IMG/VR virus record: IMGVR_UViG_3300046838_000032
Location: 1-59,165 of that record
Strand: one strand, 5' to 3'
From: a virus
DNA: 59,165 nt
Part shown: in pieces, positions 9,462 to 42,633 of the stretch
Layout of the letters: each line of letters starts with the position of its first letter
Numbering within the stretch: the stretch's first letter is position 1
Position numbers and translations under genes: made by a program
The notes under the pieces: generated by a model
What the model was told of the DNA's origin: nothing
What the model saw: only the letters and a program-made list of their open reading frames with translations
Databases searched by the model: none

Positions 9462-9473
9462 AAGGAGTAACCG

Positions 9474-9794: not shown

Positions 9795-9837
9795 CTCTGG
9801 ATGGAGGTCCAGTATGCGCAGTGAGGCGGCTTGTTGA

Positions 9838-11464: not shown

Positions 11465-11646
11465 TGTCAGCGATTGGACTACTCATCGTGGGCGCGGTGC
11501 TCGTGATCTTGTCCTACTACCTGCCCGCCGAGCCGCCGCCGGTGAAGATGATCGTGAGCGCGGCTGGCTGGATCTGTATCGTCGTTGGCGTGATCCTGCT
11601 CGTGGCGTACCTGCTCGGGCTACCGATTGCGCTGGGGGCTCACTAG
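11464..11646 (+). CDS. Two-TM small membrane protein, holin candidate
   Basis: 60 aa. The ATG overlaps the endolysin stop (TGATG). Two hydrophobic helices are present. Confidence 0.55.
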   Translation: MSAIGLLIVGAVLVILSYYLPAEPPPVKMIVSAAGWICIVVGVILLVAYLLGLPIALGAH

Positions 11647-11925
11647 GTGGACGCGCGGACTCAGAGGACGCTGCTCAGACTGGTGGCGTTGCTGGTGATC
11701 CTTGGCGTCGCTATCGTCATGGTCACTTTTGTGCATAACGATGACTTCCGTGTGCTCGGTGTTGGGCTGGCAACTGCCGCAGTTTTGAGCATCGAGGAAT
11801 GGATCAGGAACAGCCGAGACACGACCGCATCGCCGACCGTGGCCGGCGTGAATGCTGCACTTCAGGCGAATGCATCGCTCGTGGCGCGTCCGTCAGTGTC
11901 ACCCAAGGACACACCAGTTCAGTAG
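11647..11925 (+). CDS. Two-TM membrane protein (holin/antiholin candidate)
   Basis: 92 aa. The GTG start immediately follows the previous TAG. Hydrophobic segments are LLRLVALLVILGVAIVMV and LGVGLATAAVL. Confidence 0.5.
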   Translation: MDARTQRTLLRLVALLVILGVAIVMVTFVHNDDFRVLGVGLATAAVLSIEEWIRNSRDTTASPTVAGVNAALQANASLVARPSVSPKDTPVQ

Positions 11926-11945
11926 ATTTCATCGCAGCGAAGAAT

Positions 11946-11990
11946 GCCCCGCGACTGGCTACGGCCGGCGCGGGGCTTGTTTTCGTGTTC
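11946..11990. terminator. Bidirectional rho-independent terminator between convergent blocks
   Basis: GCCCCGCG (11946-53) pairs with CGCGGGGC (11969-76), followed by TTGTTTTCGTGTTC. It lies between the + stop at 11925 and the - stop at 11990. Confidence 0.65.
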
Positions 11991-12333: not shown

Positions 12334-12352
12334 TAACGGCACTTATCCTCTA
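12334..12352 (-). repeat. Copy 1 of the 19-nt motif TAGAGGATAAGTGCCGTTA (minus-strand reading)
   Basis: The plus strand reads TAACGGCACTTATCCTCTA. It is identical to 12436-12454 and lies 12 nt upstream of the ATG at 12322. Confidence 0.85.
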
Positions 12353-12360
12353 GCAAACAC

Positions 12361-12389
12361 AAAGGGGGCCTCGTCAAGAGGCCCCCTTT
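12361..12389 (-). terminator. Perfect 12-bp hairpin (AAAGGGGGCCTC/GAGGCCCCCTTT), terminator-like on both strands
   Basis: Read directly from the sequence. On the minus strand it is followed by TTTGTGTTTG. Confidence 0.6.
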
Positions 12390-12435: not shown

Positions 12436-12454
12436 TAACGGCACTTATCCTCTA
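12436..12454 (-). repeat. Copy 2 of the 19-nt motif, overlapping the stop of gene 12445-12654
   Basis: Identical 19-mer. About 45 nt downstream on the minus strand is the 12361-12389 hairpin. Confidence 0.85.
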
Positions 12455-12654
12455 CCAAGCGCCTTCGGCTTCCGTCCTTGCCACTGTCGATGCCCGCATG
12501 GCTCGGCGTAGACGCAGGGGCGCGCCTCGCGGTAGGACTCAACCGTCGCCTCGCAGACCAAGCATTCACGCGATTCCCCGCGCATCACCTTGGCGAGTTT
12601 TTCGAGATATTCGACTATGGCGCGCGCGTCTTCAGGGTCAAGTTTGGTATTCAT
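12445..12654 (-). CDS. Hypothetical small Cys-containing protein
   Basis: 69 aa from ATG 12654 (MNTKLDPEDARAIVEYLEK...). The longer ORF annotation overlaps the methylase gene. Confidence 0.5.
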   Translation of the reverse strand: MNTKLDPEDARAIVEYLEKLAKVMRGESRECLVCEATVESYREARPCVYAEPCGHRQWQGRKPKALGRG

Positions 12655-12671: not shown

Positions 12672-13211
12672 CTAAGCGGCCCAGAGCTGATGCTGCCAGC
12701 GGTCCCAGGAATGAGAGACGGCGCCTGATCCGGGGAACAGATCGACGAGCGTGTCGCCCTGTTTCAGGTTGAGCACTTGGAACAGCCAGAAGCAGAATGT
12801 CTCGGGCTTCTGTCCTTTCGTCTGGACTCGGCTTTGCGAGCGCATGACGGCGTTGGCGCGGACCCAATCGCGAATAGTGTCTTGCTTACGCGTACGCTTG
12901 CGGCCACCTCGCCAAATGACCGGCTCCCAGGCGTAGCCGACGCCGACGCCTGGCTTCATGACAAACCAGTCTTTGACCCAGACTCCGACGCGAACGTCGC
13001 TAGCGCCGAAGGCGTGACAAGTGTTGAGTAGCGTGGGCAGTGTTGGTGCGCTCAACGAGAGCGCCCAGCCATCGGGATACTCAGTCACGAGTCGACGCAC
13101 CAGCCCGATGTGGTCGACCTCGCCGGCATAGTCGGGGTGGTCGCCGTAGATAGCCTTGGCGCGCCCGATGTAGGGAGGATCGGCGTAGGCCACGGTCAGC
13201 GGTTCTGGCAC
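12672..13211 (-). CDS. DNA N6-adenine methyltransferase (DPPY motif, beta-type order)
   Basis: N-terminal AYADPPYIG and C-terminal KPETFCFWL...LVDLFPGSGA (FxGxG). GTG start. Confidence 0.8.
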   Translation of the reverse strand: MPEPLTVAYADPPYIGRAKAIYGDHPDYAGEVDHIGLVRRLVTEYPDGWALSLSAPTLPTLLNTCHAFGASDVRVGVWVKDWFVMKPGVGVGYAWEPVIWRGGRKRTRKQDTIRDWVRANAVMRSQSRVQTKGQKPETFCFWLFQVLNLKQGDTLVDLFPGSGAVSHSWDRWQHQLWAA

Positions 13212-13266
13212 AACAAGCGAAATTTAAGCACTTCACGAGCGCCAGAACTAGGGGCAGGTTTGGTAG

Positions 13267-13491
13267 CTATAACCATCCGCCAAGAGCTTCCTGAGCCCAG
13301 CGGACGTACTGGTCAGCGTGCGCTGAGTCGTCTGCGATCTTGAACAGTGCCGCCCGTAGTCGTTCGACCTCGGCCTCAAGCACCGCGATGTTGTCATCCA
13401 GCCGCTCGGCCTCGGCGCGACAGCCGATGTGCACGTCGCTGGTTACGTCGGCATTGATCACGCCAGCTTCCCAGACTGGCTCGCTAGACAT
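13267..13491 (-). CDS. Hypothetical coiled-coil protein
   Basis: 74-aa ORF containing LDDNIAVLEAEVERLRAALFKI. Confidence 0.5.
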   Translation of the reverse strand: MSSEPVWEAGVINADVTSDVHIGCRAEAERLDDNIAVLEAEVERLRAALFKIADDSAHADQYVRWAQEALGGWL

Positions 13492-13645
13492 TCGTGATCC
13501 AGTCAGGCGCTTTGTGAATGCCGCTCACTTTGCCGCAGCCGGCGCACCTGAACCACACGAGTAATCGGCCGCCGGCCCAGTGCGTCTCGATGTCACCCTC
13601 GTTCCAGCCGAGTCGGTGAGCTAGCCAGTGCCTAATCGTCAGCAT
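13484..13645 (-). CDS. Small zinc-ribbon-like protein
   Basis: 53 aa from ATG 13645 (MLTIRHWLAHRLGWNEG...FRCAGCGK). The start choice is uncertain. Confidence 0.4.
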   Translation of the reverse strand: MLTIRHWLAHRLGWNEGDIETHWAGGRLLVWFRCAGCGKVSGIHKAPDWITNV

Positions 13646-13841
13646 CGTGTTCGATCCACCCTTCCCCATGGCAACACGGGCACGTGCGGCGTAGCGACCG
13701 TCGCGGTGTCTCGTCATAGACGAAACCATGCACGTCGATCAAGTGCTGCTTTATCTCAGCGAGCGTATGACGTATGCCGTCATGTGCATCTACGTTGTGG
13801 CACGCAGGCCCCGCGAAATCAGGCCGAATGTAAACACTCAT
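13632..13841 (-). CDS. Hypothetical Cys/His-rich small protein
   Basis: 69-aa ORF containing CPCCHGEGW. Confidence 0.5.
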   Translation of the reverse strand: MSVYIRPDFAGPACHNVDAHDGIRHTLAEIKQHLIDVHGFVYDETPRRSLRRTCPCCHGEGWIEHDADD

Positions 13842-13856: not shown

Positions 13857-15410
13857 TTAGTCAGCCATCGCGTGCCCACGGGTCCGGTGCATGTTCTTGA
13901 CGTTCTGCGCGCGCGTCATTGGCTCTCCATGCCCAGGATAAACACAGTGCCGCGGACACGTTCTACGATGATCCCAATCCATGATTCTGCCTGTCTCGTC
14001 CACAGGAAACGGCCTACCATTGATCACTTCCCAGACCACCTGATGCGCTGGCCGGTTGTTCGCTGGCCTACCATCGCCATACCCCCAGTACACGACGCCG
14101 TACCCGTCTTTGTTCTTCGTCCCCTTCCACAACCAGCACTCGCCTTGCGTCCGGTCGATCCTATCTAGCAACTCTTGCACCCGCTTCTCAGGCATCGGCA
14201 GCGCTGGCACTACTACCTCTGACCTGATCTCACGAACTATCGTCCTACGCCTCTTATACGACCCCTCTGCTGGTACTCCGTACTCCGTGGGATCGGGCAG
14301 GACCAACTCTCGCCGCTGGTACTTCGGCAGCCGCAACTTTGTGCGCGTCGGGCGATGCTCAGGTGAGCGTACCCAGGCGTAACCAGTCGGCATGTTCTCG
14401 AGTTGCACGTCTGCCGGCTCGATGCGCAAGTGCTCCGCAGCGAATGCAACCTCGCGCTTTGACTCTTGCGCGAAGCTCACCCACACCTTGACGTTGTTAA
14501 CGACTTCCTCAGGAAGCTTCGCCATGTTCTGCGTCAACACCACGAGCGGACAGCCACGGTCGCGCCCAGCTTGCGCGAGCGCGTTCATCTCTACCTGACG
14601 CGAACCGGCCTGTCCGGCTTCCTCGACGACAAGCAGGAAGTTGCCAACCTCTTGTGCAACACGGCGAGCTTGGACGAGCGCGATGCCACCGATGATCGGT
14701 GCGTCCTCTGGTGACAAGAATCGGTTCGGCAGGATCAACACTTTCTCGTTGTTACGCATGCATTCAGACAGATCCATGTCTGCGCCGAGCGATGGTCCGA
14801 GTGACATGGCGATGCGCTCGAAACGATTAGCCCATGTGCGGCATGCGCGCGTGTCGTCTGGATTGGCGCCGTTCCGTTTGAGAGCTGACACGAGCGCGTC
14901 GAGTGTGCGCGGCTGTTGTGCCTCGTCCAGATCGTCGAGCGCGTGCCATAGGCGCATCTGTGCGAGTCCACGGTTGTAGCCGGTGTCTGCATCGCTGCGC
15001 GCAAAGCCAGCGGTTAGCGCTTCGCTGACGACCTGTGCGCTGCCAGAGAGAATGTCCCAGCCGATGTCGCCACCGGGTTGCCAGATCGTCCATCCCTGTG
15101 ACTCGAACAGGTCACGGATCGGCCGGCTGTTGTCGAATGCCACGACGAGCGCGCGCGGTACGGCTTGCAGTAACGGCACAACGGCCGTGCTTTTGCCCGT
15201 GCCGGACATGCCCGCAACGACAGCATGGATCGTGTGCGATCCGCCGCGCAGATCAACTGTGAGCCTGCCGAGTTTCCACGGGATGCGCGGGCCCGGACGC
15301 AGTATGCGCCGCGTGACGATGAGCGTCAGCAACAGCGCGAGCAGCACTGGCAGCAGCGGGTTGACGTGCTCAAACGTCGGATGCTCGAACGCGCGCGACA
15401 GCGACTGCAC
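13857..15410 (-). CDS. VirD4/TraG-type type IV coupling ATPase fused to a C-terminal HNH endonuclease domain
   Basis: N-terminal TM segment. Walker A VAGMSGTGKST and Walker B-like FLLVVEEAGQ. The C-terminus reads ECWLWKG..DGYG...AHQVVWE...DHRRTCPRHCVYPGH...QNVKN. The GTG start is 2 nt after the VirB4-like stop. Confidence 0.72.
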   Translation of the reverse strand: MQSLSRAFEHPTFEHVNPLLPVLLALLLTLIVTRRILRPGPRIPWKLGRLTVDLRGGSHTIHAVVAGMSGTGKSTAVVPLLQAVPRALVVAFDNSRPIRDLFESQGWTIWQPGGDIGWDILSGSAQVVSEALTAGFARSDADTGYNRGLAQMRLWHALDDLDEAQQPRTLDALVSALKRNGANPDDTRACRTWANRFERIAMSLGPSLGADMDLSECMRNNEKVLILPNRFLSPEDAPIIGGIALVQARRVAQEVGNFLLVVEEAGQAGSRQVEMNALAQAGRDRGCPLVVLTQNMAKLPEEVVNNVKVWVSFAQESKREVAFAAEHLRIEPADVQLENMPTGYAWVRSPEHRPTRTKLRLPKYQRRELVLPDPTEYGVPAEGSYKRRRTIVREIRSEVVVPALPMPEKRVQELLDRIDRTQGECWLWKGTKNKDGYGVVYWGYGDGRPANNRPAHQVVWEVINGRPFPVDETGRIMDWDHRRTCPRHCVYPGHGEPMTRAQNVKNMHRTRGHAMAD

Positions 15411-15412
15411 GG

Positions 15413-17791
15413 CTAGTCAGCCGCCAGCGACGGCTGTTCTAGTGCAGGACGAGTTTCCAGAACATCTTGATCGCGATCAAGCCGATGATCACCGTCCCGA
15501 CCGAGGACGCCGGCAATTGCGCTAACCACAGGATCACCGCTAGTGGCGTCACGTGTTCCATCAACAGCACTGTACTCCTCGATTGGTCCGGCGTCATCTT
15601 CCACGCCGTCCGTGTTTGCCATCTGGTATTCGTCCGGCGAATGCTCCACCTCGAACACGATGCGCGTGAGTCCCGCCTCGAGCATCGCTTGCCCCACGCC
15701 GAGCCGCGAGATGATCTCGACTTGCTCATCCGTCCAGCGCAATCGTTTCTGTACATCCGATATCTCCGAGGATGCCTGCATACCGAAGAATTTCGTCCCG
15801 CACAGAGATTGCACGGTCGCGCCGAGACTCGATGAAAGCGCATCCATCGGCCGTTGCGTCATAAAGAAACTGGCGATCTGCAAATGTCGGCCGCGGCGAA
15901 CCATATCCTCAACCTCTGACTCGGCCTCGTGGTCACCGATGACCGACCACATCTCATCGACAATCACCACGCGGCGCGTTCGCCACTTCGCTGCGCGTTT
16001 GAAGATCGCACGCTTGAACGCCACGGTCGCACGGCACCGCTGCTCAGTGTTCAGTTCCGCAAGGTTGAATGCGATTACCGGTGGGCACGCCCGACCGGCC
16101 GCGACATCGACAAACACTGTCGCCATGTCGTGCTCGTATGTGTCGCGGCGGATCTTCCGCACCTCGCCACCGCAGTAGGTAGCCCACCGACCGTACTCGC
16201 CGTTCTGGTCTTCCTCTGCCTGGTCAATGGCGAACATCTCGGTTGCCAGTCCGGCGAAGAACATGCGCGACGTCAATACCTTGACGGAGAAGCCTTTACC
16301 GGCGCCGCTGGTAGCGTAGATCGCGACGTTCGGATTCGGGATCATTGGCTTTGCCCAGGGTGACCACATCACGACGCGCTTCCCGTACAGACTGCGGCCC
16401 CACGGCACGCCACCCTTGAGCCCGAGTTCGGATGCTGACCACAAGTACGCGCGCGAGACTGACGACGTGTCAACACGGTGAGAGCGCGCGAGCAATCGAT
16501 GCTCAAGCACGCCGGCCGTCAACTGCTGCGCGTCGGCTTGTTCCCATCGTAGCGGCGCCGCGATCGCGCCAGATTCTTCGACGATCTTTTCTACGGCACG
16601 CCCGGCGGCCACCGCTTCATTGCGCGTCTTGCCATGAGCCTGAAGGTAGATCGCGACTTCGAACACATGCTCGGAGTTCGTCTCGAGCGCGTCGAGCATC
16701 CCGTCGACCTGCTTGATAGCCAGCTTCCGTTGCCTTGTCTGCTTCGTTGTCTCCATCTTGAATAACTGATCGCGCAGCGACTTCTGTACGGCAGCCGTGT
16801 CTTGCTTACGAATGAACTGGTGTACATCGATAGCCGACTCACCATCAGACAACGATGCGAGGAAATCGACGGGTACCGACGCCGGCCACTTCTGGTAGGC
16901 GTACGTAGCGTGCCAGGTGCCATCGACACCGATAGCGTCAGACTCGATATGCATGACACGTGGGCCGATGTGCTTGCGCGCATCCGCGTGCGACCAGCCG
17001 CGTTGTAGAGCCTCTATGAGCCGCTCGTCCGACAACCGCTCGCTCCGTAAACTCGCGCGCTGTAGCGCAGCATCCACGGCCGCGGCGTAGCGCTCGAGTG
17101 TCGTGTCATCCGATGCGCGGATCGCAATGAACCGCTGTCGCTGCATAACGCGCGCAGCGGCGAACTTTGCGCCAAGCCATTGCGCCGTCAACAATCCTGC
17201 AGGATTCGCATGCTTCCGCATCGCGCCGAGTATGTCGGTGAGGTCAACCGGCGTCGCGCGTACGAACGTTTGAATCGGACACGGGATACCGTCGAGGAAT
17301 GCCGCCCAGCGCGCTCGCTCAGCCTCGCGAGCTGCATCTGACGCCAGGCGTAGCGATACCGCAGGCACGCTCCACATCGCCACACTCTGACCGTGGACGT
17401 GCGCGACATCGGTCGATACGGCTGGTGAGCCGATAAACGCATAGGCATCCGCGCCGGCGTACATGCGAGGCCGCGCGCGGAAGTGAAAGAACGCGACCGC
17501 GCCATGTTCCACCGGAGGCTCGAATGGCAGCGCAACGATGAGCGCCGCGATTAGGACGAGCGCTGCGCCGATGACTGGCACGAGCGGTAATGCACCGGCT
17601 GCCGTTCCCTCGCCAATAGCCGGCACTGTATCGCGCACCATATCGAAGAGTGATGGCCCAACCGGCGGCAGACTGACCGCGACGGCCGCCGCCACGAGCA
17701 CGCCGCCACAAAGGACAACACCCTGGCGGATCGTCCAGTTGTCGATGCCGTCAGGGGTGTCGAGGTGCGTGGGAACTGTGTGGCGGCTCAT
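15413..17791 (-). CDS. PrgI/VirB3-like membrane N-terminus fused to a VirB4/TrsE-type conjugation ATPase
   Basis: 792 aa. The N-terminus reads LDTPDGIDNWTIRQGVV followed by TM helices. Walker A is IYATSGAGKGFS and Walker B is RVVIVDEMWS. The overall layout is typical of monoderm VirB4 proteins. Confidence 0.78.
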   Translation of the reverse strand: MSRHTVPTHLDTPDGIDNWTIRQGVVLCGGVLVAAAVAVSLPPVGPSLFDMVRDTVPAIGEGTAAGALPLVPVIGAALVLIAALIVALPFEPPVEHGAVAFFHFRARPRMYAGADAYAFIGSPAVSTDVAHVHGQSVAMWSVPAVSLRLASDAAREAERARWAAFLDGIPCPIQTFVRATPVDLTDILGAMRKHANPAGLLTAQWLGAKFAAARVMQRQRFIAIRASDDTTLERYAAAVDAALQRASLRSERLSDERLIEALQRGWSHADARKHIGPRVMHIESDAIGVDGTWHATYAYQKWPASVPVDFLASLSDGESAIDVHQFIRKQDTAAVQKSLRDQLFKMETTKQTRQRKLAIKQVDGMLDALETNSEHVFEVAIYLQAHGKTRNEAVAAGRAVEKIVEESGAIAAPLRWEQADAQQLTAGVLEHRLLARSHRVDTSSVSRAYLWSASELGLKGGVPWGRSLYGKRVVMWSPWAKPMIPNPNVAIYATSGAGKGFSVKVLTSRMFFAGLATEMFAIDQAEEDQNGEYGRWATYCGGEVRKIRRDTYEHDMATVFVDVAAGRACPPVIAFNLAELNTEQRCRATVAFKRAIFKRAAKWRTRRVVIVDEMWSVIGDHEAESEVEDMVRRGRHLQIASFFMTQRPMDALSSSLGATVQSLCGTKFFGMQASSEISDVQKRLRWTDEQVEIISRLGVGQAMLEAGLTRIVFEVEHSPDEYQMANTDGVEDDAGPIEEYSAVDGTRDATSGDPVVSAIAGVLGRDGDHRLDRDQDVLETRPALEQPSLAAD

Positions 17792-17794
17792 AGG

Positions 17795-18037
17795 CTATCC
17801 GCCGCCGCCGAGTCCTTGCTGAAAGAATCCGCCGATGACCGAGAATGAGAATAAGAACAGCGTGCCGAGAATCATGGACACGATGTACGACCGAACAAAA
17901 TGGCCGACGCCTTGGCCGCCGATATTGGTGAGCAGAATGACGCCCATGATGACCGTGACGAGTGCCATCAAGCCTGCGCCAACGTGTGAGATTTCTACGG
18001 CTAGCGCGAGAAGTTGCGAGCCGATTTGTGCGCCCAA
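17795..18037 (-). CDS. Small two-TM protein, VirB2/TrbC pilin-like candidate
   Basis: TTG 18037 lies 6 nt after AGGAGG. 80 aa with two hydrophobic helices and a Gly-rich C-terminus. It sits between the TrbL-like and VirB4-like genes. Confidence 0.45.
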   Translation of the reverse strand: MGAQIGSQLLALAVEISHVGAGLMALVTVIMGVILLTNIGGQGVGHFVRSYIVSMILGTLFLFSFSVIGGFFQQGLGGGG

Positions 18038-18048
18038 AGTGTTTCCTC

Positions 18049-18924
18049 CTAACCAACGACGATCGCCGCGGCAGCGACCGTCTGCTTGACGATTGACATG
18101 AGGCCGCCCCCTTTGATGTCGGCTCCGATGGTTGCCATGTCGTATGCGAGCAGTAAGACGCCGATGCTGAGCGCCACGCTTCCTATCGTTCCTCCCATTG
18201 TTCCGATGAGCACGGCGGCGAGCTTCAAGCACAACGCCACCATGACTTGCCCGACGAGTAGGCCAGCGTACGATCGAACCCAGTTCGACCAGTAACTATG
18301 CGCCTGCGGCACCGTCCAGCAATACGCGGCGAGCGGACCAACGCACATGAGCACGCCGAGATAGATGAGTCGGTAGCCCATGCGCACGAGCAACCGCAGC
18401 CCGAGCACGATCCACACGACGATCAGAATTGCAGTGATCCAGGGGTCGAACCCTGCGTTCTGCGGTCCTGGCATGTTCGCATCGCTGATGGCATCGCTAG
18501 CCGTGTTCGCGAGGGTGATCGACGTCGCGTAGACGAACGGCATACTCGTCGCGAAGGCGATACCGAGGAACGTGCGCGCAGACCACTCGCCGAGTTTCCA
18601 CGTCCAGCCGAAGTATTCGCGACCGATGCACGCACAACCGGCAAGCACGACGGTCAGCGCAACCACGCCAGCCGTCGCGCCACGCCAGTCGCGGTATATG
18701 TCGCTGATGCCGCCGAGGTTGTACGACAGCCCTGGCGGTGTGCGAGTAACGAAGTTGACATCCGAGTTCTGCACGCTGTTAGCGATTTGGTCCCAGAGAA
18801 CATCCCCCTTATCCGTGATGATGTGCGCGACCGCATCCGTCGCAGCCTGCATGAGTTGCGGGAACGCGTTCATGAACGCCGAGATGAGCGCCGCTGCCCA
18901 TGAGCCAGGGTCGAAGTCAGGCAC
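18049..18924 (-). CDS. Polytopic membrane protein, TrbL/VirB6-like
   Basis: About 291 aa from GTG 18924, with an 8-nt overlap onto the P60 stop. It has at least 6 hydrophobic segments. Both its position and its architecture match VirB6 analogues. Confidence 0.6.
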   Translation of the reverse strand: MPDFDPGSWAAALISAFMNAFPQLMQAATDAVAHIITDKGDVLWDQIANSVQNSDVNFVTRTPPGLSYNLGGISDIYRDWRGATAGVVALTVVLAGCACIGREYFGWTWKLGEWSARTFLGIAFATSMPFVYATSITLANTASDAISDANMPGPQNAGFDPWITAILIVVWIVLGLRLLVRMGYRLIYLGVLMCVGPLAAYCWTVPQAHSYWSNWVRSYAGLLVGQVMVALCLKLAAVLIGTMGGTIGSVALSIGVLLLAYDMATIGADIKGGGLMSIVKQTVAAAAIVVG

Positions 18925-19459
18925 CGATGCGTCCGTAGCCGACGAAATGTGCGCGCCAATATGCCGTGTTGAGGTTCTGTCGGCCGAGTGTCGGCTCAAT
19001 GGCGGACACCATCACGCCATCACCGACGTAGATCCCGACGTGGCTGATGAAGTCCGGCCGGCTGTCGTACGTTCCAAAGAAGAACACGAGGTCACCTGGT
19101 TCTGGTGCCGCGACCTTCTGCGCGACGTTGTATTGCCCCTGCGCTGTCCGCGGCAGATTCACGCCGAGCTGCGCGAAGACTGCCCTTGTGAATCCTGAGC
19201 AGTCGACTGCGCCGACGACATTGCCGCCGAATAGGTAACGCGACCCAAACCACGGGGCAATCAGCGAGTCAAGCGATGCGTTTTCTCCGAGTGCTGGCCC
19301 GATTATCGGCACCGTTGCCTCTGTCGGCACGTGGCCTGGTGGTGAACGCACCGAGCCCAGGAACGTCGCGACCACGAGCGCGAGCGGCGCAACGACCGCG
19401 ACTGATGTGGCGATCAGGATGATGACGATGCCGCCGACTAGCGAGCCGACGACTCTCAC
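18917..19459 (-). CDS. Membrane-anchored NlpC/P60 (C40) peptidoglycan hydrolase
   Basis: N-terminal TM segment. Catalytic motifs VDCSGFTRAVF and ISHVGIYVGDG. Confidence 0.85.
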   Translation of the reverse strand: MRVVGSLVGGIVIILIATSVAVVAPLALVVATFLGSVRSPPGHVPTEATVPIIGPALGENASLDSLIAPWFGSRYLFGGNVVGAVDCSGFTRAVFAQLGVNLPRTAQGQYNVAQKVAAPEPGDLVFFFGTYDSRPDFISHVGIYVGDGVMVSAIEPTLGRQNLNTAYWRAHFVGYGRIGA

Positions 19460-20322
19460 GCGGCTGCCTCAAGGTCCGCCTGTGGTTGTTCGGCCGGTGG
19501 CAGCGCAACCCAGTAAGACTCAGGCGACGGCGGTAGCGGCGGCCAAGGTGGGAGGTGGATGTTCCAACCCTGCTCTTGTGCGGCGGCGCGCTTCGGTTTT
19601 GGTGTAGGAGCAGCGGTCGGCGTCGTTGTCGGCTGCTGTGTCGGTGCCGTGGTAGCCGTGCGCGTTGCGGTGGGCACGGGCGTGTGCGTCGCAAGCATGG
19701 TCGGCGTTGCTGTGCGCGTTGGGATAGGCGTTGCGGTCGCTGTTGTCTCCGGCACGTCGGTCGGCTCGCTTGTCGGTGGCGACACGTAGACGTAGACGAT
19801 CTGCGGCTGCGCTGGTGCGGGCGCGCGTGGTGCGGTTGTCGGTTGTCGAGTCGGTGCCGGTCGCGGCGTGCTAGTCGACACCGACGTTGGCTCAGGCGTG
19901 ATCGCCGCGAGCCAGTCGAGATATGCCTGCCATTCCTCACACGAGATCGGCGTACCGTCGAGGTGGTAGATCACGTCGGTGATGGGGTTGCCGTCGTCAT
20001 CGAACTGCTGGTTGCCAGCGTCGTCGTAGACCGGCCCCGTAGCCCAGCACACCGGCTCGGGCATTGGGGATGCCGTAGGTACCGACTCATCCGAGGCACT
20101 AGAGATGAGAGGTGTGGAAGTCGGTGCCGGTGTGCTGGTGGCCGGAGCGAGCGTCGCCACGGCGAGCGGTGTAGGCGTATCGCAATACCCTGCTGGGTAA
20201 TTCGCCCCGTGCTTAGCGAGGCAGTTGGCGATCTCTTCATGTTGGTGTTGCTGCTGATAGAGCGACGGTGTCGGGTTGGTAGCAGCGAGTGTCAGTGCCA
20301 GACCGACCACGGCAGCGATCAC
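19456..20322 (-). CDS. Membrane-anchored/secreted Pro/Thr-rich protein
   Basis: 288 aa with a hydrophobic N-terminus and long PT-rich tracts around a Cys-containing domain. The stop overlaps the P60 start. Confidence 0.6.
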   Translation of the reverse strand: MIAAVVGLALTLAATNPTPSLYQQQHQHEEIANCLAKHGANYPAGYCDTPTPLAVATLAPATSTPAPTSTPLISSASDESVPTASPMPEPVCWATGPVYDDAGNQQFDDDGNPITDVIYHLDGTPISCEEWQAYLDWLAAITPEPTSVSTSTPRPAPTRQPTTAPRAPAPAQPQIVYVYVSPPTSEPTDVPETTATATPIPTRTATPTMLATHTPVPTATRTATTAPTQQPTTTPTAAPTPKPKRAAAQEQGWNIHLPPWPPLPPSPESYWVALPPAEQPQADLEAAA

Positions 20323-20357
20323 TTGCAGAAACCCACCACGGACTCACACATCGCGAA

Positions 20358-20537
20358 CTAGGCGGCTCGTGCTCGCTTCACTCGGATCGGCGTCGATGGA
20401 TCGTTGCGCGCCCGCTGCGCGCGGAGTGCCTGCTCGAGCAGGGCCGAAGCTTGCTGCTCAGCACTCCGCCATTGCTGTTCAGCGAGTTCATTGAGCGTCG
20501 GCTCGTCGGTGTCACGGATCGTAACGGTTAGGTCCAC
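20358..20537 (-). CDS. Ribbon-helix-helix-like small protein (below the ORF-track cutoff)
   Basis: 59 aa read by hand: VDLTVTIRDTDEPTLNELAEQQWRSAEQQASALLEQAL... GTG start with AGGAGG 12 nt upstream. Confidence 0.4.
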   Translation of the reverse strand: MDLTVTIRDTDEPTLNELAEQQWRSAEQQASALLEQALRAQRARNDPSTPIRVKRARAA

Positions 20538-20629
20538 TTAGCCGTTTGACCTCCTACGTAACCCAATATAGCCCATCGTTACATACGTGTCTAGACCTAT
20601 ATGTCCCTCTGTGGTACGTTGGGTAGGAT
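20538..20629. promoter_or_regulatory. AT-richer divergent control region between the RHH (-) and HTH (+) genes
   Basis: It contains TTGACC, TATAGC and TATATG hexamers, three TACGT cores, and an imperfect inverted repeat TACGTAAC / GTTACATA. Confidence 0.4.
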
Positions 20630-20809
20630 TTGGACGAGCAGTGGCTAACTGTGAGCGAGGTCGCTCAGGTCATGCGCGTCAAACCTAAGACTGTCCGACG
20701 CTGGATTAACCTCGGCACGATCAAGCGTGCGACGATGGTCAACCGGCGAGCTGGCTGGCTGATCCCGCGCTCGGAAGTCGACCGGCTATTGCTCGAGAAC
20801 CAGCGTTAG
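20630..20809 (+). CDS. Excisionase/MerR-type helix-turn-helix protein (below the ORF-track cutoff)
   Basis: Read by hand: (M)DEQWLTVSEVAQVMRVKPKTVRRWINLGTIKRATMVNRRAGWLIPRSEVDRLLLENQR. The start is TTG 20630 or GTG 20651. Confidence 0.55.
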   Translation: MDEQWLTVSEVAQVMRVKPKTVRRWINLGTIKRATMVNRRAGWLIPRSEVDRLLLENQR

Positions 20810-21102: not shown

Positions 21103-22062
21103 CTACGTACTGAAGCCCGGAAGTTGTACGGGCGGCGGTGGAACGTCCTGCTCAGGCTCGGGCGTTGGTGGCATAGGTGTGGGTGTAGGTTGCTCCACAG
21201 TTGGTACAGGTGTACTCAGTTGCTCTGGCACCCCAACGCTCGCGACAGGCGTAGTAAGCGTCGGTGGCAACGTGCCAGTGGGTGCGGGCGCCAGCGTAGG
21301 CACGGATGAAGGCGTAGCTGTCATCGTGGATGTTGGTAAAGCGGCCTGAGTCGGGATTGCGCATACATCACCTGCCTTATCGCGGATATACGTCTCGCCC
21401 CATGTGAAGTTCTCCTTGTGCGGCAGCCCGCCTGGCACATCCTTGGACTGAACGGCCATAGGGACGTACTGCCCGCTGAAGTTGCCGTCCTCGTAGACGC
21501 ACAGCAGAACGAAGCGGGTATTACTGCCAGTCCCGCCACGAGATGATGTCGCCGCATTCGGTGCACTCGAGCCGCCAGATGTAGACGGCGGGGGACTCGC
21601 TATCGGCTGCGGTGAACTCGCACTCGGCGTTGGCGTCGGCACTCCCAGGATGTTTATGGACGGCGTGATAGCAACCGTCGGTGTAGTGGGTGAGGGTGAA
21701 CTCACTATGGGCGGTGTGGGCACCGCGGGGGTCGACGACGAGGGTGGACTTGTGGGCGTAGGTGGTATTGGCGTACTCGTTGGCGGGGTGCTGGTGGGCA
21801 CGCTCGTTGGGGTGAATGATGGTGGTACCTCCGTAGCCGTTGGTGGCACAGGCGTATACGTCGGCGTGTTCGTCGGGTAATGCTTCGGCGTAGGTGTCGG
21901 CGTGGGATGCAGGACGCAATAGCCGGCCTGCTCATTCTCTTGTGTGTCGGGATAGCCAGGCTGGCAGTCCCAGGCGAAAGTAACGGACGGTGCGAGCGTC
22001 CAGGCGAGTAGCAGGATCACACTCCCCAGTGCGACTGCGGCAGGTTTCACGTTCGTTAGCAT
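21103..22062 (-). CDS. Secreted Pro/Thr-rich surface protein
   Basis: 319 aa. The signal-like N-terminus reads AAVALGSVILLLAWTLAPSVTFA. Two long PT/S tracts flank a roughly 70-aa globular segment. Confidence 0.65.
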   Translation of the reverse strand: MLTNVKPAAVALGSVILLLAWTLAPSVTFAWDCQPGYPDTQENEQAGYCVLHPTPTPTPKHYPTNTPTYTPVPPTATEVPPSFTPTSVPTSTPPTSTPIPPTPTSPPSSSTPAVPTPPIVSSPSPTTPTVAITPSINILGVPTPTPSASSPQPIASPPPSTSGGSSAPNAATSSRGGTGSNTRFVLLCVYEDGNFSGQYVPMAVQSKDVPGGLPHKENFTWGETYIRDKAGDVCAIPTQAALPTSTMTATPSSVPTLAPAPTGTLPPTLTTPVASVGVPEQLSTPVPTVEQPTPTPMPPTPEPEQDVPPPPVQLPGFST

Positions 22063-22072
22063 ACATGCAGCG

Positions 22073-22086
22073 ATCTAGAAACATAC
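22073..22086. repeat. Left arm of a 14-bp perfect inverted repeat (ATCTAGAAACATAC)
   Basis: The reverse complement occurs at 22342-22355. The arms bracket the XRE gene. Confidence 0.85.
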
Positions 22087-22090: not shown

Positions 22091-22336
22091 GTGGGACTCG
22101 GACGATACCTACGGGATACGTATCATGCGCGACACGTGGTCAAGGTGCCTGGCCTACGTCAGCACCGGCTTGAGGCCGCACTGACACAGCAAGAGTTGGC
22201 GGACATGGCCGGCGTCAAACGACTCACGATCACGCGGCTAGAGAACGGAGGCGACGCCCGCCCTCCAACGGTGCGTCGCCTCGCGCGGGCACTACGTTGT
22301 GCGCCGCGTGATCTGATCAGAGCCGAGTCTAGTTGA
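22091..22336 (+). CDS. XRE-family helix-turn-helix regulator
   Basis: LTQQELADMAGVKRLTITRLENG. The true start may be GTG 22136 or 22145. Confidence 0.65.
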   Translation: MGLGRYLRDTYHARHVVKVPGLRQHRLEAALTQQELADMAGVKRLTITRLENGGDARPPTVRRLARALRCAPRDLIRAESS

Positions 22337-22341: not shown

Positions 22342-22355
22342 GTATGTTTCTAGAT
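22342..22355. repeat. Right arm of the 14-bp inverted repeat (GTATGTTTCTAGAT)
   Basis: Perfect reverse complement of 22073-22086. Confidence 0.85.
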
Positions 22356-22472: not shown

Positions 22473-23600
22473 TCATCGAGCGATTCCGGCGACACCGCCA
22501 CCCCTGACTGTTTTCAGGATAGGACGCGCGTTCGATCCTGTGTGCCAGCGACTTGCCAGCGACGGTAGTTCCTGGGTCGCTGCAAGATCGAGGTCGGCAC
22601 CTCGGGTGTACACCCCGATCATGGCGTGGTTGTTCTTGGCCCATCCCATGCGCGCGGAGAGCACGTCGATCTGGCTCGGGTCTGCCTGATATCGCTCTGT
22701 GAAATTGGCACGACGAAAGGCATGTGGTGGCCGGTTCTCAACGCCAGCTTTATCGCAGATGCGTTTCAGCACATAGCGCAACTGATCTGGTGTGAGTGGC
22801 GTGCCGCGGATCGACGTCCAGAGGTATGCGTGGTGCTCGGCTCGAGCGAGGGTCGAGCGCATGTCGATCCATTCGGCAAGCCGTCGCAACGTCTGTCCGC
22901 CGCGCGGGTCTTCAGTATCACGGATGCTGAGCGTGCGCTGCTTGCCACCCTTGCCGCGCCGGACCATGATGCGTCCACCATCGAGATCGACGTCGGCGAC
23001 GGACATGCTGCAACACTCGTCAGCTCGGATGCCCGCGTCAGAAAGAACGTAGAGTAACGCCAGGTCGCGTGAGATCGAGATCCGTGGCGCTTGTGTCGTC
23101 TCGTCCATCAGTCGGCGCAAGACAGCATGCTCGAGCGCGCGGAACTCTTCTGGCCGGATGCGCGGCTGGATACGCTCGGGCACCTCTGGCGGTCTGAGGT
23201 GCGTCAGGTCAGGCACGGACACACCCTGAGCCAGTAGCCAGCGAGCCAGTGCGCGCGCCGAGAACGCCACGCCGTTAGCTTTGGCCTGCCCGCCCTTGTA
23301 GTTCCGTGCGCCTTCTTTGGTGAGGCACGTGCGGAACGCCTTGCGGAGCAGATCAGGCGTGAGTTCGGCGACGTAGTAAGCGCGCTGCGTTGCAGCGAAT
23401 GCCGCGAGCCATTCGAGATGACCGCGGTATGTCCTGACCGTCGCTGCGGACGGCACGCGCGGCCCCTCAAACGGCCACGCTTCCAGAAACGAGGAGATAG
23501 CGTCATCGAGCCGCAACCTCCTGCCCTTTCCGGGTCTAGATACCTTCCTTGCGGCGTCACCGGCTCCTAATTCGGCACTGCCGCTATCGGCCTCAGACAA
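22473..23600 (-). CDS. int: Tyrosine recombinase / phage integrase
   Basis: GKGGKQRTL, HAFRRANFT and a C-terminal IGVYTRG (catalytic Tyr context). TTG start. Confidence 0.85.
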   Translation of the reverse strand: MSEADSGSAELGAGDAARKVSRPGKGRRLRLDDAISSFLEAWPFEGPRVPSAATVRTYRGHLEWLAAFAATQRAYYVAELTPDLLRKAFRTCLTKEGARNYKGGQAKANGVAFSARALARWLLAQGVSVPDLTHLRPPEVPERIQPRIRPEEFRALEHAVLRRLMDETTQAPRISISRDLALLYVLSDAGIRADECCSMSVADVDLDGGRIMVRRGKGGKQRTLSIRDTEDPRGGQTLRRLAEWIDMRSTLARAEHHAYLWTSIRGTPLTPDQLRYVLKRICDKAGVENRPPHAFRRANFTERYQADPSQIDVLSARMGWAKNNHAMIGVYTRGADLDLAATQELPSLASRWHTGSNARPILKTVRGGGVAGIAR

Positions 23601-23714: not shown

Positions 23715-24218
23715 TTAGCGGGTGGCACCTGCTAGGGTACGTTGGCGCGAGAGTCCGGCGAAGGCGCTAACCACGTGCGAACCCAATGTTAGTGGGTTGT
23801 CATCGGCTGAATTAGCCTGCTTGCGCCGTTTGTCCTGCATCTCACGCTTAGCCTGTTCCCGTGACTTAGCAGTGGGGTAGATCGGCGAATTAGCAGTGGT
23901 TCGGCGACGCAGAGACGCTAGGAACGTCACGGCCATCGGTCGCTTGTCTGGTTCGGCGTCGCGGTACGCGGCAAGCAAGCTGGTTTCTTCCGGGGTGAGT
24001 TCTCCTCCTCGTCCCATAGCTGAGGCCATTTCGGCCGGCGTCATATTGAACGCCTTGGCGATCTTGTCCAGGGTGCTATCGGCTACGTACTGTCGCTGAC
24101 CACGCAAAATTTGATAGAGGCCGGACGCATTTAACCCGGTGCGGTTCGCAAACTGCGGCACCGACTCGTCACGCAGATCGAGTTGTCGTCTCAGAAACGC
24201 CCGAAGGGCATCGGTCAC
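23715..24218 (-). CDS. XRE-family HTH protein, CI-like repressor candidate
   Basis: VPQFANRTGLNASGLYQILRGQR...IAKAFNMTPAEM. It is divergent from a Cro-like gene. Confidence 0.65.
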   Translation of the reverse strand: MTDALRAFLRRQLDLRDESVPQFANRTGLNASGLYQILRGQRQYVADSTLDKIAKAFNMTPAEMASAMGRGGELTPEETSLLAAYRDAEPDKRPMAVTFLASLRRRTTANSPIYPTAKSREQAKREMQDKRRKQANSADDNPLTLGSHVVSAFAGLSRQRTLAGATR

Positions 24219-42568: not shown

Positions 42569-42574
42569 GCATTC

Positions 42575-42603: not shown

Positions 42604-42633
42604 TAGGTTTTCAGGACGAATATCGGACGAGTT

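Follow-up and report, generated by a model that had tools for sequence, protein, structure and literature searches.

Organisation and regulatory signals of the cassette

The window analysed here, the whole stretch of 59,165 nucleotides of the IMG/VR record IMGVR_UViG_3300046838_000032, carries on its minus strand, at positions 13857–20537, a tightly coupled operon, referred to below as the cassette. All open reading frames (ORFs) that a first-pass annotation had read there are present at those minus-strand coordinates, with the motifs it quoted. The genes for an exported Pro/Thr-rich protein (PT288), an NlpC/P60 hydrolase, a polytopic membrane protein, an 80-aa protein, a VirB4-family ATPase and a second ATPase succeed each other with spacings of −4, −8, +11, +3 and +2 nt. 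The gaps of −8 to +12 nt described earlier thus hold from PT288 through the last ATPase (−8 to +11 nt), but not between the first operon gene and PT288, where the gap is +35 nt. This first gene (20358–20537, minus strand) encodes a possible ribbon-helix-helix protein of 59 aa, whose match to FitA-like_RHH (E 0.006) is weak, its 17 bits lying under the 27-bit cut-off.

Upstream of the first gene, at 20565–20593 on the minus strand, lies a sigma-70-like promoter, TAGACA-17-TATATT, which at 10 of 12 motif positions is the best promoter-like match across 11.5–24.5 kb, a region in which the total match count is not above that of shuffles; on its 3' side come an AGGAGG ribosome-binding site and then the GTG with which the first gene starts. 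Divergent from the cassette, a 59-aa DNA-binding protein of the Xis/MerR type (20630–20809, plus strand; Pfam HTH_17, 6.4e-14) is a candidate regulator. Two of the relatives described below (L001 and L011) have a homologue at this divergent position, with 69–77% identity, and other relatives carry a divergent XRE-type HTH protein there.

Four co-oriented ORFs of 69, 81, 74 and 179 aa on the ORF list (12672–13841, minus strand) follow the last ATPase gene and probably belong to the same transcription unit. The three shorter ones had no family match in profile searches; the 179-aa product is a putative N6-adenine methyltransferase with a DPPY motif and weak matches to MethyltransfD12 (E 0.0014) and phrog_56. 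A strong terminator-like hairpin on the cassette strand (12361–12389; 12-bp stem and T-run) is flanked by a 23-nt direct repeat (12334–12356 and 12436–12458). The hairpin previously reported near 11946 is real (MFE −39.4 kcal/mol, z = −4.5): this GC-rich element at 11945–11975, with a U-tract 3' of the stem on the plus strand, separates the convergent plus-strand lysis operon from the minus-strand block.

Predicted channel, wall and motor components

The 792-aa VirB4-family ATPase (15413–17791, minus strand) is solidly assigned, as the first-pass annotation had it: it matches NF045971 conju_CD1110 (3.1e-21) and AAA_10 (30.2 bits, over the 27.5-bit gathering score), and the family profile finds VirB4 (4AG5, 2e-14) and TrwK (7e-8) in the PDB. 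Its nearest cellular counterpart is encoded on a Chloroflexota plasmid (hhalign 1e-29). Walker B reads VVIVDE and Walker A is a non-canonical SGAGKG; since the canonical Ser/Thr is missing (GKG) throughout this clade, ATPase activity may be altered or lost. The term PrgI/VirB3-like, applied earlier to the N-terminal extension with its two predicted transmembrane (TM) helices, describes topology only. The same is true of the label VirB2/TrbC-like for the 80-aa protein (17795–18037, minus strand), a putative accessory subunit of VirB2/VirB3 size with two predicted TM helices and no family match in Pfam, NCBIfam or PHROG profile searches; its positional counterpart in L011 has weak matches to TrbC pilins (Pfam weak; NCBIfam E 0.0083).

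The 291-aa polytopic protein (18049–18924, minus strand), with at least five predicted TM helices, was proposed to be VirB6/TrbL-like, and the matches agree with this at a weak level. TrbL is the sole recurrent Pfam family among its relatives: of 18 family members, six match TrbL_4 (best 4.9e-5) and four match TrbL, every one at a sub-threshold score. In Foldseek, a pLDDT-66 model finds R388 TrwI/VirB6 as its three best matches (E 0.04–0.17, TM-score about 0.3). It also matches phrog_3750 (2.8e-8). Together, these data weakly suggest a distant VirB6/TrbL-like channel subunit.

The membrane-anchored NlpC/P60 peptidoglycan endopeptidase (18917–19459, minus strand; NLPC_P60 3e-23, one predicted N-terminal TM helix) is a firm identification and would have a role of the VirB1/CwlT type. 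An SLT-type hydrolase takes its position in L011 and other proteins do so in L004 and L016, a swapping of types like that of VirB1 analogues. PT288 (288 aa; 19456–20322, minus strand), a candidate wall-spanning or surface component, is exported or anchored and has a conserved, small core with Cys, syntenic homologues in L001 (57% identity) and L002 (32%), and a dN/dS of 0.15. A second, co-oriented Pro/Thr-rich exported protein of 319 aa is encoded upstream of the cassette (21103–22062, minus strand); it has a hydrophobic N-terminal segment, and L001 and L011 each encode a homologue (43–44% identity) upstream of their cassettes. Neither Pro/Thr-rich protein matched a family in Pfam, NCBIfam or PHROG profile searches.

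The last ATPase (517 aa; 13857–15410, minus strand) had been described as a VirD4/TraG coupling protein, an identity that we reject. VirD4/TraG models of Pfam and NCBIfam gave no match even at E 0.1, hhalign against a genuine CD1115-family VirD4 yielded E 0.17, and by Foldseek the fold fits HerA (3e-12), TrwB (1.7e-11) and VirB4 (6e-11) equally well. In addition, it carries at residues ~405–512 an HNH (His-Me) nuclease domain overlooked earlier (phrog_826, 1.5e-17). The AF2 model (pLDDT 85) comprises a TM helix (19–36), a RecA-like core interrupted by an all-alpha insertion (~120–220), a disordered linker (370–396) and the HNH domain (409–511), and the family invariants are GxGKS, EEAGQ and H481/C485/C489/H494/N503. 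This ATPase-HNH protein represents a rare family, a previously undescribed fusion of DNA pump and nuclease, and we propose that it is a coupling and DNA-processing motor. A Chloroflexi MAG fragment carries it; no conserved non-coding site accompanies its gene in the comparison of relatives. Searches of the genome found no relaxase, VirB8-like protein, oriT or canonical VirD4, so that the earlier description as a full T4SS, or minimal mating-pair-formation inventory, was overstated.

Phage context and conservation of the cassette

The monoderm-type T4SS-like gene set is nevertheless truly integral to a complete tailed-phage genome, as had been claimed. An exact 127-bp repeat common to both window ends closes a circular temperate siphovirus genome of 59,038 bp, and the independent Logan assembly SRR26074689 (59,068 bp, i.e. 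59,038 + 30) agrees with it at 100% identity over 21,554 bp covering both suspected junctions, which excludes a mis-assembled join. Around the cassette we identified TerL (Terminase_6N, 2.7e-24), portal (9.4e-57), protease, major capsid protein (phrog_10, 2.4e-61), head-tail adaptor, tape measure (3.6e-77), a single integrase (4e-21) and a CI-like repressor. The likeness in composition noted by eye was also borne out: the cassette has a GC content of 0.60–0.63, and its GC and GC3 match those of the remaining genome.

Eight further distinct phage-like contigs from independent ENA, NCBI, JGI and Logan samples (L001, L002, L004, L008, L009, L010, L011 and L016) carry the cassette in the same gene order between tail/lysis genes and integrase, with VirB4 identities from 73% down to 21%. 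IMG/VR lists one of these cassette-bearing relatives among its viral genomes, and one relative occurred on at least 24 contigs, of which 14 fall in the 50–200 kb class. A ninth relative, L017, retains the VirB6-like protein and ATPase-HNH, with no VirB4 detectable within 10 kb on either side. The dN/dS values of 0.09–0.32 in all seven comparable cassette genes indicate purifying selection. Compared with the window, L010 has a 90% identical ATPase-HNH and a VirB4 of just 24.5% identity, and its nucleotide similarity stops exactly at the borders of the ATPase-HNH gene; L002 and L004 show the opposite pattern, with a closer VirB4 and a more distant ATPase-HNH. Judging from these alignments, the channel part and ATPase-HNH recombine independently, resembling the Mpf and Dtr modules of plasmids. 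The host of the lineage, as read from sequence relationships, is probably a monoderm member of the Chloroflexota. In agreement with the earlier view that such phages are not an established class, we found no description of them in the literature searched or among 50,697 deposited phage records.

Proposed function and alternative explanations

By these comparisons the cassette is a translocation module derived from a T4SS and spanning the envelope, an old, conserved and self-regulated part of a temperate siphovirus lineage, made up of a channel sub-module and a substrate sub-module. We propose, giving this an even chance, that it serves relaxase-free, contact-dependent DNA translocation from lysogens. 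In this hypothetical scenario, transcription would start at the operon's own promoter, controlled by the divergent Xis/MerR-type protein and the small first-gene product; the anchored hydrolase would open the wall, the VirB6/TrbL-like and 80-aa proteins would make the membrane pore, VirB4, tethered via its VirB3-like two-TM N-terminus, would energise assembly, and the exported Pro/Thr-rich proteins would decorate or span the wall. As the substrate sub-module, the membrane-anchored ATPase-HNH, of hexameric type and HerA/VirD4/VirB4 fold, would stand in for both relaxase and coupling protein: its HNH domain would nick or cut circular phage (or host) DNA on the cytoplasmic side of the membrane, and its ATPase ring would drive the DNA through the VirB4/VirB6 channel to a contacting cell, either a neighbour or the next cell of a filament. 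To our knowledge, all characterised monoderm systems combining VirB4, VirB6 and a hydrolase (ICEBs1, pCF10, pIP501, pCW3, Tn916) transfer DNA, and conservation across the lineage, purifying selection and the Mpf/Dtr-like modularity likewise speak for the proposal. Points against it are the relaxase, oriT, VirB8-like protein and canonical VirD4 that the searches did not find, the ATPase-HNH gene moving with no conserved non-coding site, the non-canonical VirB4 Walker A, the sub-threshold VirB6 matches, and the VirB4-free arrangement in L017; nor do we know of a demonstration that an HNH enzyme initiates conjugative transfer. The combination of conjugation-type channel genes with a DNA-pump/nuclease fusion suggests that these phages may also pass DNA straight from cell to cell; if so, the phage would gain a contact-dependent transmission route without virions.

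A HerA-like ATPase with a nuclease is also a signature of several anti-phage defence systems, which counts against DNA transfer. ATPase-HNH could accordingly catch and degrade incoming phage or plasmid DNA at the membrane, with VirB4, VirB6 and hydrolase as sensor, decoy or docking platform. The best sequence matches of its family are to defence-complex HerA (8ZIQ E 0.0049; NCBIfam HerA_antiphage 9e-4), the PADLOC models mad8 (1e-8) and HerA match too, Foldseek also finds HerA-nuclease defence complexes, TdpAB and DndH, and L017 keeps the fusion without VirB4. In mycobacteriophages, moreover, prophage-expressed defence genes sit between lysis genes and integrase, as the cassette does. However, all defence-model scores fall far short of the family thresholds (17.9 bits where 800 are required), and the mad8 match is a generic P-loop match because both cassette ATPases match alike. 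The hydrolase and Pro/Thr-rich proteins suggest a structure that crosses the envelope, the lineage conserves the channel genes under purifying selection, and no defence system known to us pairs a wall hydrolase with VirB4 and a VirB6-like protein; we consider defence or superinfection exclusion unlikely. Lysogenic conversion, in which the apparatus would secrete effectors or toxins, or display the Pro/Thr-rich proteins as adhesins for aggregation or biofilm formation, would suit these two proteins and the missing relaxase and oriT, and T4SSs of other bacteria are known to have been exapted for protein delivery (PMC3548315). Such a non-DNA substrate is quite improbable, given that the invariant HNH domain, with apparently intact catalytic residues and fused to a motor, favours DNA, and that Pfam, NCBIfam, PHROG and defence-profile searches revealed no effector, toxin or immunity candidate near the cassette. 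We also know of no documented protein-only T4SS in monoderms.

Import of exogenous DNA into the lysogen by a Ced/ComB-like channel, with ATPase-HNH pulling it in and processing one strand in the manner of EndA/ComFA in natural transformation, appears still more doubtful. Uptake machinery likewise places a nuclease and an ATPase together at the membrane, and VirB4 has weak matches to CedB of archaeal DNA import (8.7e-6; 6e-9 for the L011 type), but these are limited to the Walker B region and score under VirB4 models, we recognised neither DNA-receptor nor pilus genes, and the benefit to the phage is not obvious. Least probable is a mere juxtaposition, be it a chimeric assembly, a tandem of phage and ICE, a recent co-integrate of phage and conjugative plasmid, or the remnant of a decaying ICE borne along as cargo. 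Examples of phage-ICE tandems and of conjugative phage-plasmid co-integrates do exist (PMC13651849; bioRxiv 10.1101/2025.03.14.643293), and the missing relaxase could suit a remnant. Against this, two assemblers close the same circle with full agreement over both junctions, the genome has one integrase only and a uniform composition, and ATPase-HNH and the polytopic protein are missing from 72,556 plasmids. The reading is largely refuted: mis-join, tandem and recent capture are ruled out by the dN/dS values and by recurrence of the cassette in at least eight relatives, in mosaic phage contexts, with VirB4 identities as low as 21–25%.

The cassette in a closed temperate phage genome

TerL (37817-39175, Terminase_6N/6C), the portal protein (39613-41013, Phage_portal, 9.4e-57), the HK97-type major capsid protein (MCP; 45036-46517, phrog_10, 2.4e-61), the tape measure protein (53074-55761, 3.6e-77), a tyrosine integrase (22473-23600, Phage_integrase, 4e-21) and a CI-like repressor (23715-24218, CI-like HTH) together identify the genome as that of a temperate HK97-fold siphovirus (Caudoviricetes). 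It further encodes a protease (43480-45024), a head-tail adaptor, an AAA_25 helicase and several DNA methyltransferases, and relatives of its MCP are found in Mycobacterium and Gordonia phages at approximately 28-31% identity. The integrase is the only one, and no second recombinase was found across the genome. Both ends of the window carry an exact 127-bp repeat, and an independent Logan assembly (SRR26074689) contains a 59,068-bp contig corresponding to 59,038 bp plus a 30-bp circular overlap; the same 59,038-bp circle was thus closed by two assemblers. The Logan contig is 100% identical over 21,554 bp spanning the junctions at 11.9-12.0 kb and 24.2-24.3 kb, where a mis-join had been considered. 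An assembly chimera is therefore ruled out by the two terminal overlaps, the identity at both junctions and the recurrence of the cassette in independent samples.

The cassette itself (13857-20537, minus strand) is a compact co-directional operon of about 7 kb with overlapping genes. All of the ORFs listed in the first-pass annotation were recovered on the minus strand with the coordinates and motifs assigned to them, and the GC and GC3 values of the cassette are, as had been judged by eye, those of the remaining window. The genes are tightly coupled, as described there, with junctions of -4, -8, +11, +3 and +2 nt, apart from a gap of +35 nt behind the first small gene. A sigma-70-like promoter (TAGACA-17-TATATT, 20593-20565, minus strand) with an AGGAGG ribosome-binding site lies upstream of the gene series, which ends, after four further small ORFs, at a terminator-like hairpin with a 12-bp stem (12389-12361, minus strand). 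The hairpin at 11946, proposed earlier as a bidirectional terminator, is genuine (z = -4.5). The 3'-end terminator hairpin of the cassette is flanked by a 23-nt direct repeat, TAACGGCACTTATCCTCTAGCAA (12334-12356 and 12436-12458, 96% identical, spaced by 102 nt), which could act as an operator, belong to attP or provide some other cis site. Between the second Pro/Thr-rich gene (21103-22062) and the integrase gene lies the gene of an 81-aa XRE-type HTH protein (22091-22336), with the two arms of a perfect 14-nt inverted repeat, ATCTAGAAACATAC / GTATGTTTCTAGAT (22073-22086 and 22342-22355), on either side of it.

Other accessory genes are scattered through the genome. It is unusually rich in methyltransferases (12672-13211, 25886-26677, 29245-30489, 36369-37550 and 46815-48338), including one C5-cytosine enzyme, two N6/N4 enzymes, a putative N6-adenine enzyme with a DPPY motif, whose gene closes the cassette operon, and a 507-aa protein with a SAM-methyltransferase domain encoded immediately downstream of the major capsid gene; this complement would provide broad anti-restriction protection. 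An SLT-type lytic transglycosylase (26674-27123), encoded in the early/replication region apart from the lysis cassette, represents a second wall-remodelling enzyme and has a homologue with 45% identity in the related contig L004 (18249-18812). Between the portal and protease genes, the opposite strand encodes a family-2 glycosyltransferase (42634-43383, minus strand) that has TPR repeats at its C-terminus and may serve lysogenic conversion or surface modification.

Putative channel proteins and a membrane-anchored ATPase-HNH fusion

The assignment of ORF 15413-17791 to VirB4 is confirmed by the NCBIfam model conju_CD1110 (3.1e-21) and by Pfam AAA_10, scoring above the gathering threshold, and the family profile retrieves the solved VirB4 structure 4AG5 (2e-14) and TrwK (7e-8) from the PDB. 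Its VirB4 domain follows two N-terminal TM helices, and the separate 80-aa protein (17795-18037) is likewise a two-TM protein. Neither this N-terminus nor the 80-aa protein matched PrgI or VirB3 models in Pfam or NCBIfam, and the N-terminus shows no alignable similarity to the PrgI-VirB4 fusion of a Vescimonas plasmid. The 80-aa protein has no family match; its positional counterpart in the related contig L011 gives weak TrbC pilin matches. The Walker A motif of VirB4 (residues 495-501) reads S-G-x-G-K-G-[FYM], with Gly in place of the canonical Ser/Thr after Lys. This GKG form is invariant in 15/15 aligned family members and in the versions of L008, L009 and L010, whereas the canonical GAGKS is kept in the L011-type VirB4 and in the homologue on a Chlorohelix plasmid. 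The Walker B motif (hhhhDE) is preserved, and the GKG motif may reflect altered nucleotide or Mg2+ handling.

The hydrolase at 18917-19459 is, as annotated, an NlpC/P60 endopeptidase (NLPC_P60, 3e-23) anchored by an N-terminal TM helix, and provides the cell-wall hydrolase of the VirB1/CwlT/PrgK role; L011 carries an SLT-type enzyme at the same position. The polytopic protein (18049-18924) possesses at least five TM helices. Among the 18 members of its family, TrbL_4 and TrbL are the sole recurring Pfam families, with TrbL_4 found in six of the 18, all sub-threshold (best 4.9e-5). In a Foldseek search of 350,542 PDB chains with a mediocre AF2 model (pLDDT 66), the top three matches were TrwI/VirB6 of R388 (E 0.04-0.17, TM approximately 0.3). 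Since these two weak lines agree, we regard the protein as a putative, distant VirB6/TrbL-like member. No significant family in Pfam, NCBIfam or PHROGs could be assigned to either Pro/Thr-rich protein or to the putative RHH protein, and no cassette ORF matches the VirB8 models of these databases. The only VirB8 candidate by position is the 288-aa Pro/Thr-rich protein (19456-20322), which is largely of low complexity.

The ORF at 13857-15410, previously taken for a VirD4-type coupling ATPase, has no T4SS-DNA_transf, TraG-D_C or TrwB_AAD_bind match in Pfam or NCBIfam (E <= 0.1), and membership in VirD4 was rejected at the sequence level by comparison with a genuine CD1115-family VirD4 (hhalign E 0.17). 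It has no FtsK_SpoIIIE Pfam match either, and against PDB sequences it yields only weak HerA, FtsK and TcpA matches (FtsK E 0.015, TcpA E 0.79). Its confident AF2 model (pLDDT 85) predicts an N-terminal TM helix (residues 19-36) followed by a RecA-like core into which an all-alpha segment is inserted (approximately 120-220), then a disordered linker (370-396) and a C-terminal HNH domain (409-511). Foldseek retrieves HerA (3e-12), TrwB (1.7e-11, target TM 0.57) and the C-terminal domain of VirB4 (6e-11, TM 0.60) about equally, so the fold search does not tell VirD4 from HerA or VirB4. The HNH domain resembles those of phage HNH endonucleases (phrog_826, 1.5e-17; HNH_3). Over 33 sequences diverging to 33% identity, Walker A (GxGKS), Walker B (EEAGQ) and the HNH core residues H481, C485, C489, H494 and N503 are invariant or nearly so. 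The nuclease would have to lie in the cytoplasm, given the ATP requirement of the fused ATPase and the basic residues that come after the TM helix.

An N-terminal TM helix followed by a nucleotide-binding domain with an alpha-helical insertion is an architecture like that of type IV coupling proteins (T4CPs). Only 55 proteins at E <= 1e-30 emerged when 1.84 billion representatives were searched exhaustively with the HMM, the ATPase-only relatives are without a Pfam family, and the protein is absent from the 72,556 plasmids of PLSDB, in which the polytopic protein was likewise not found. On these grounds, the TM-ATPase-HNH protein is a new rare family, T4CP-like by position and architecture, and not a VirD4 member. 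A recent paralogous origin of the two cassette ATPases was rejected, as their similarity is weak and confined to the Walker B region (hhalign E 0.0028, probability 11%). Both match phrog_2666 (2.5e-14 for 13857-15410 and 1.4e-10 for 15413-17791), a family labelled 'terminase large subunit', despite the presence of a normal Terminase_6 TerL elsewhere in the genome; this label probably misnames a VirB4/HerA-like family that occurs in some phage or prophage records.

No relaxase (MOB) or Rep_trans family was detected in the approximately 60 ORFs scanned genome-wide. Comparison with the related contig L010, where similarity stops at the gene borders, revealed no candidate oriT- or clt-like conserved non-coding DNA beside the ATPase-HNH gene. 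An 84-bp patch common to window 42551-42634 and L010 was considered as oriT and rejected, as it consists of a sigma-70-type promoter and the palindromic operator of a small RHH operon. This operon belongs to a moron-like unit (window 42176-42634, minus strand; L010 7769-8685; 87-88% nucleotide identity) encoding a 64-aa Cys-rich ORF and a 65-aa textbook ribbon-helix-helix protein behind the promoter TTGACG-17-TATAGT, which contains the palindrome TATCAtgtTGATA. The distance from the RHH gene of the unit to the ATPase-HNH gene is 1-2.5 kb in L010 and L011; in the window, the RHH gene is surrounded by head genes and lies on the strand opposite to them.

Conservation, modularity and probable host

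The VirB4 family comprises 21 clusters at 90% identity, and all retrieved contexts are phage-like, with a constant gene order beside tail-fibre/GH25 lysis genes and an integrase. The compared contigs include L001 (64 kb, ENA), L002, L010 and L011 (41, 56 and 68 kb, respectively, all NCBI GCA_040384425.1), L004 (54.8 kb, JGI; IMG/VR UViG_3300015190_000002), L008 (34 kb, Logan), L009 (73 kb, JGI) and L016 (55.8 kb, JGI), for which at least 24 contigs with its VirB4 are known. Compared with the window, VirB4 identity falls from 73% to 21-25%, and all VirB4 versions match the CD1110 model, the divergent ones at 1e-14 to 1e-24. The orientation of the cassette relative to the late genes varies among genomes, and a divergent HTH regulator is usually located beside it. 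The cassette genes are under purifying selection, with dN/dS values of 0.09-0.32 (0.10 for the closest pair, at dS 0.85). The cassette is a lineage trait of these phages, and its T4SS-type channel module is an ancestral, selected part of capsid-sized temperate phage genomes rather than the product of a two-element fusion. We are confident, if short of certain, that it represents a T4SS-derived translocon module ancestral to the phage lineage.

Within the cassette, the channel genes and the ATPase-HNH gene form two units with different histories. The ATPase-HNH of L010 is 90% identical to that of the window, whereas its VirB4 and polytopic protein reach only 24.5% and 22%; conversely, L002 and L004 share 49-52% identity in VirB4 and 47-48% in the polytopic protein, but only 29-31% in ATPase-HNH. 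Between the window (13857-15290) and L010 (4530-5954), a gene-sized recombination patch of 82% nucleotide identity coincides exactly with the ATPase-HNH gene, and the genes flanking it are without nucleotide similarity. The hydrolase slot is interchangeable, being occupied by an NlpC/P60, SLT or other protein. The Mpf and Dtr modules of conjugative plasmids recombine independently in the same manner, and this Mpf/Dtr-like behaviour argues that the two units cooperate, with one specifying the channel and the other the substrate. The clade-wide GKG Walker A in the VirB4 clade of the window and the contig L017 (Logan SRR16915460, 58.4 kb) weigh against such cooperation. L017 encodes a VirB6-like polytopic protein, an 81-aa non-TM ORF and ATPase-HNH (8719-11698), with no VirB4 within 10 kb on either side in tblastn searches with five diverse phage VirB4 queries; its copy is either decaying or of a kind that does without VirB4.

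The host probably belongs to the Chloroflexota, which are generally regarded as monoderm. This sequence-based assignment relies on the sole match in a GTDB scan (one 3.5-kb Chloroflexi MAG contig), on one ATPase-HNH cluster annotated as "Chloroflexi bacterium" and on the best plasmid relative of the window VirB4, encoded on a plasmid of Candidatus Chlorohelix allophototropha (hhalign 1e-29). The neighbours of the Chlorohelix plasmid VirB4 were considered as counterparts of the cassette partners and proved to be unrelated. The genome has no tRNA genes and hence offers no host clue from tRNA.

Proposed function and relation to known systems

The closest known systems are the monoderm conjugative T4SSs (ICEBs1 Con, pCF10 Prg/Pcf, pIP501 Tra and the Tn916/CTn 'CD1110-type'), with which the cassette shares a CD1110-like VirB4, a wall hydrolase anchored in the membrane, a polytopic protein of putative VirB6 type, small proteins with two TM helices, a second P-loop motor, likewise membrane-anchored and encoded directly downstream, and a compact co-directional operon. 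In contrast to these systems, it is located in a tailed-phage genome and not in an ICE or plasmid, its VirB4 has the GKG Walker A, and an ATPase-HNH fusion takes the place of the relaxase, a recognisable VirB8-like protein and a VirD4-family coupling protein. What had been described as a full Gram-positive-type T4SS in a tailed phage is thus a genuine, conserved T4SS-like cassette, but not a full T4SS: no VirD4, relaxase or VirB8 was recognised in it, and the supposed VirD4 is a novel ATPase-HNH fusion.

To our knowledge, all characterised monoderm systems combining VirB4, VirB6 and a hydrolase transfer DNA. Considering this and the intact nuclease carried by the motor, the most economical reading is that the cassette as a package acts as a relaxase-free DNA-export device, a function that we infer and to which we give about an even chance. 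In the hypothetical mechanism, the HNH domain would make a nick or an end in the DNA, the ATPase ring would pass the DNA to the VirB4/VirB6 channel, and the hydrolase and the Pro/Thr-rich proteins would bring the apparatus across the wall. More tentatively, and as a reading that we hold less likely than not, we hypothesise that these probable-Chloroflexota phages use two transmission routes, virions and a relaxase-independent, conjugation-like route in which the membrane-anchored ATPase-HNH would not only cut the phage genome but also pump it via the phage-encoded VirB4/VirB6 channel into adjacent cells. If true, this would constitute a new DNA-processing solution for T4SS transfer and a real hybrid of phage and conjugative element, stable across long evolutionary time. 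We consider it unlikely that the cassette is a prophage device for defence or exclusion based on a HerA-like ATPase-nuclease: HerA-nuclease systems are the top Foldseek and PDB-sequence neighbours of ATPase-HNH and its fold is compatible, but HerA_antiphage scores 17.9 bits against a cut-off of 800, and PADLOC returns only a generic mad8 match (1e-8, obtained for VirB4 too) and HerA (4e-4). A known defence system was rejected, PADLOC yielding generic ATPase matches only. ATPase-HNH resembles Sir2-HerA, DUF4297-HerA, TdpAB, DndFGH and HerA-NurA in coupling a HerA-fold ATPase functionally to a nuclease; those systems, however, are soluble, made of separate subunits and unlinked to VirB4, VirB6 or hydrolase genes, whereas ATPase-HNH has an N-terminal TM anchor and a covalently fused HNH domain and scores far under the HerA cut-offs. 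We consider an apparatus for protein secretion or adhesion quite improbable and a device for DNA import very improbable. An artefact, a phage-ICE tandem or a remnant is extremely improbable. A phage-ICE tandem or a co-integrate of a phage with a conjugative plasmid would comprise two complete elements, each with a recombinase or replicon and att sites of its own, and its ICE part would carry a relaxase and a T4CP; the genome instead shows a single integrase, no relaxase, a cassette of only about 7 kb and a uniform composition.

Phages and conjugative elements are usually regarded as two distinct means of horizontal gene transfer, with classifiers assigning each sequence to one or the other. 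If the module moves DNA, these phages would be freed from a receptor-limited host range and from having to lyse their hosts, the binning of viromes and plasmidomes would misjudge their mobility, and an HNH nuclease fused to a motor could replace relaxase and VirD4 in T4SS substrate processing. Even if it serves exclusion or secretion, the module would represent a new viral use of the VirB4/VirB6 machinery together with the new TM-ATPase-HNH family. With seven genes, the system is small enough for testing in a heterologous host.

In Streptomyces TraB and clostridial TcpA, a single membrane-associated hexameric motor of the FtsK/HerA superfamily drives DNA transfer without a canonical relaxase. 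TraB mediates conjugation of double-stranded DNA without VirB4/VirB6 and recognises clt repeats by a wHTH domain, whereas the motor of the window bears an HNH nuclease and adjoins VirB4/VirB6-like genes. Among phages, the nearest precedent is the gp31/gp31.1/gp31.2-gp32 region of Bacillus phage SPP1, proposed by its authors as a putative trans-membrane translocon of unknown role, in which gp32 is a large non-essential ATPase with a TrwB/VirB4/FtsK-like C-terminus, encoded beside small putative membrane proteins (PMC6316719). No homology to gp32 was detectable (hhalign E 0.23 and 0.085 against the window ATPases; no NCBIfam VirB4 match of gp32). Unlike the present phage, SPP1 is virulent, and its gp32 has no TM segment, HNH domain, VirB6-like partner or hydrolase partner.

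Phage and conjugation functions also occur on one transferable molecule in phage-ICE tandems (PMC13651849) and in conjugative phage-plasmid co-integrates such as p1002-1 (bioRxiv 10.1101/2025.03.14.643293). These are two complete elements, accreted or recently fused, each keeping its integrase or replicon; their conjugative part is a full T4SS with relaxase, and the authors deny that they are hybrids (PMC13651849; bioRxiv 10.1101/2025.03.14.643293). In contrast, the cassette described here is minimal, relaxase-less and conserved through deep divergence inside a single-integrase, capsid-sized genome. The Streptococcus pyogenes prophage Phi1207.3 has full phage modules and its transfer meets the operational definition of conjugation, by a mechanism that its authors call unknown; the terms type IV secretion, relaxase and FtsK are absent from the text of that paper (PMC4260502). 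Phi1207.3 has observed transfer, whereas the window phage has T4SS-like genes known from sequence.

We found no description in the literature of tailed phages with a VirB4-type system of their own, and INPHARED contains no close homologue of either ATPase, yielding only HNH-only matches and weak VirB4 matches on unannotated gut contigs. BFVD holds HerA/VirB4/FtsK-like ATPases in some viral records, and the uncultured Siphoviridae sp. ctHip2 encodes a "conjugal transfer protein" and an "FtsK translocase" (BFVD A0A8S5RV31, A0A8S5RUZ7). VirB4-like proteins are also encoded by INPHARED MT835730.1 and seven related unannotated 'Bacteriophage sp.' gut contigs. The matches in the ctHip2 and gut-contig records are at the level of fold or of 20-25% sequence identity, and these records may represent additional T4SS-like systems borne by phages or else ICE fragments that were misclassified.
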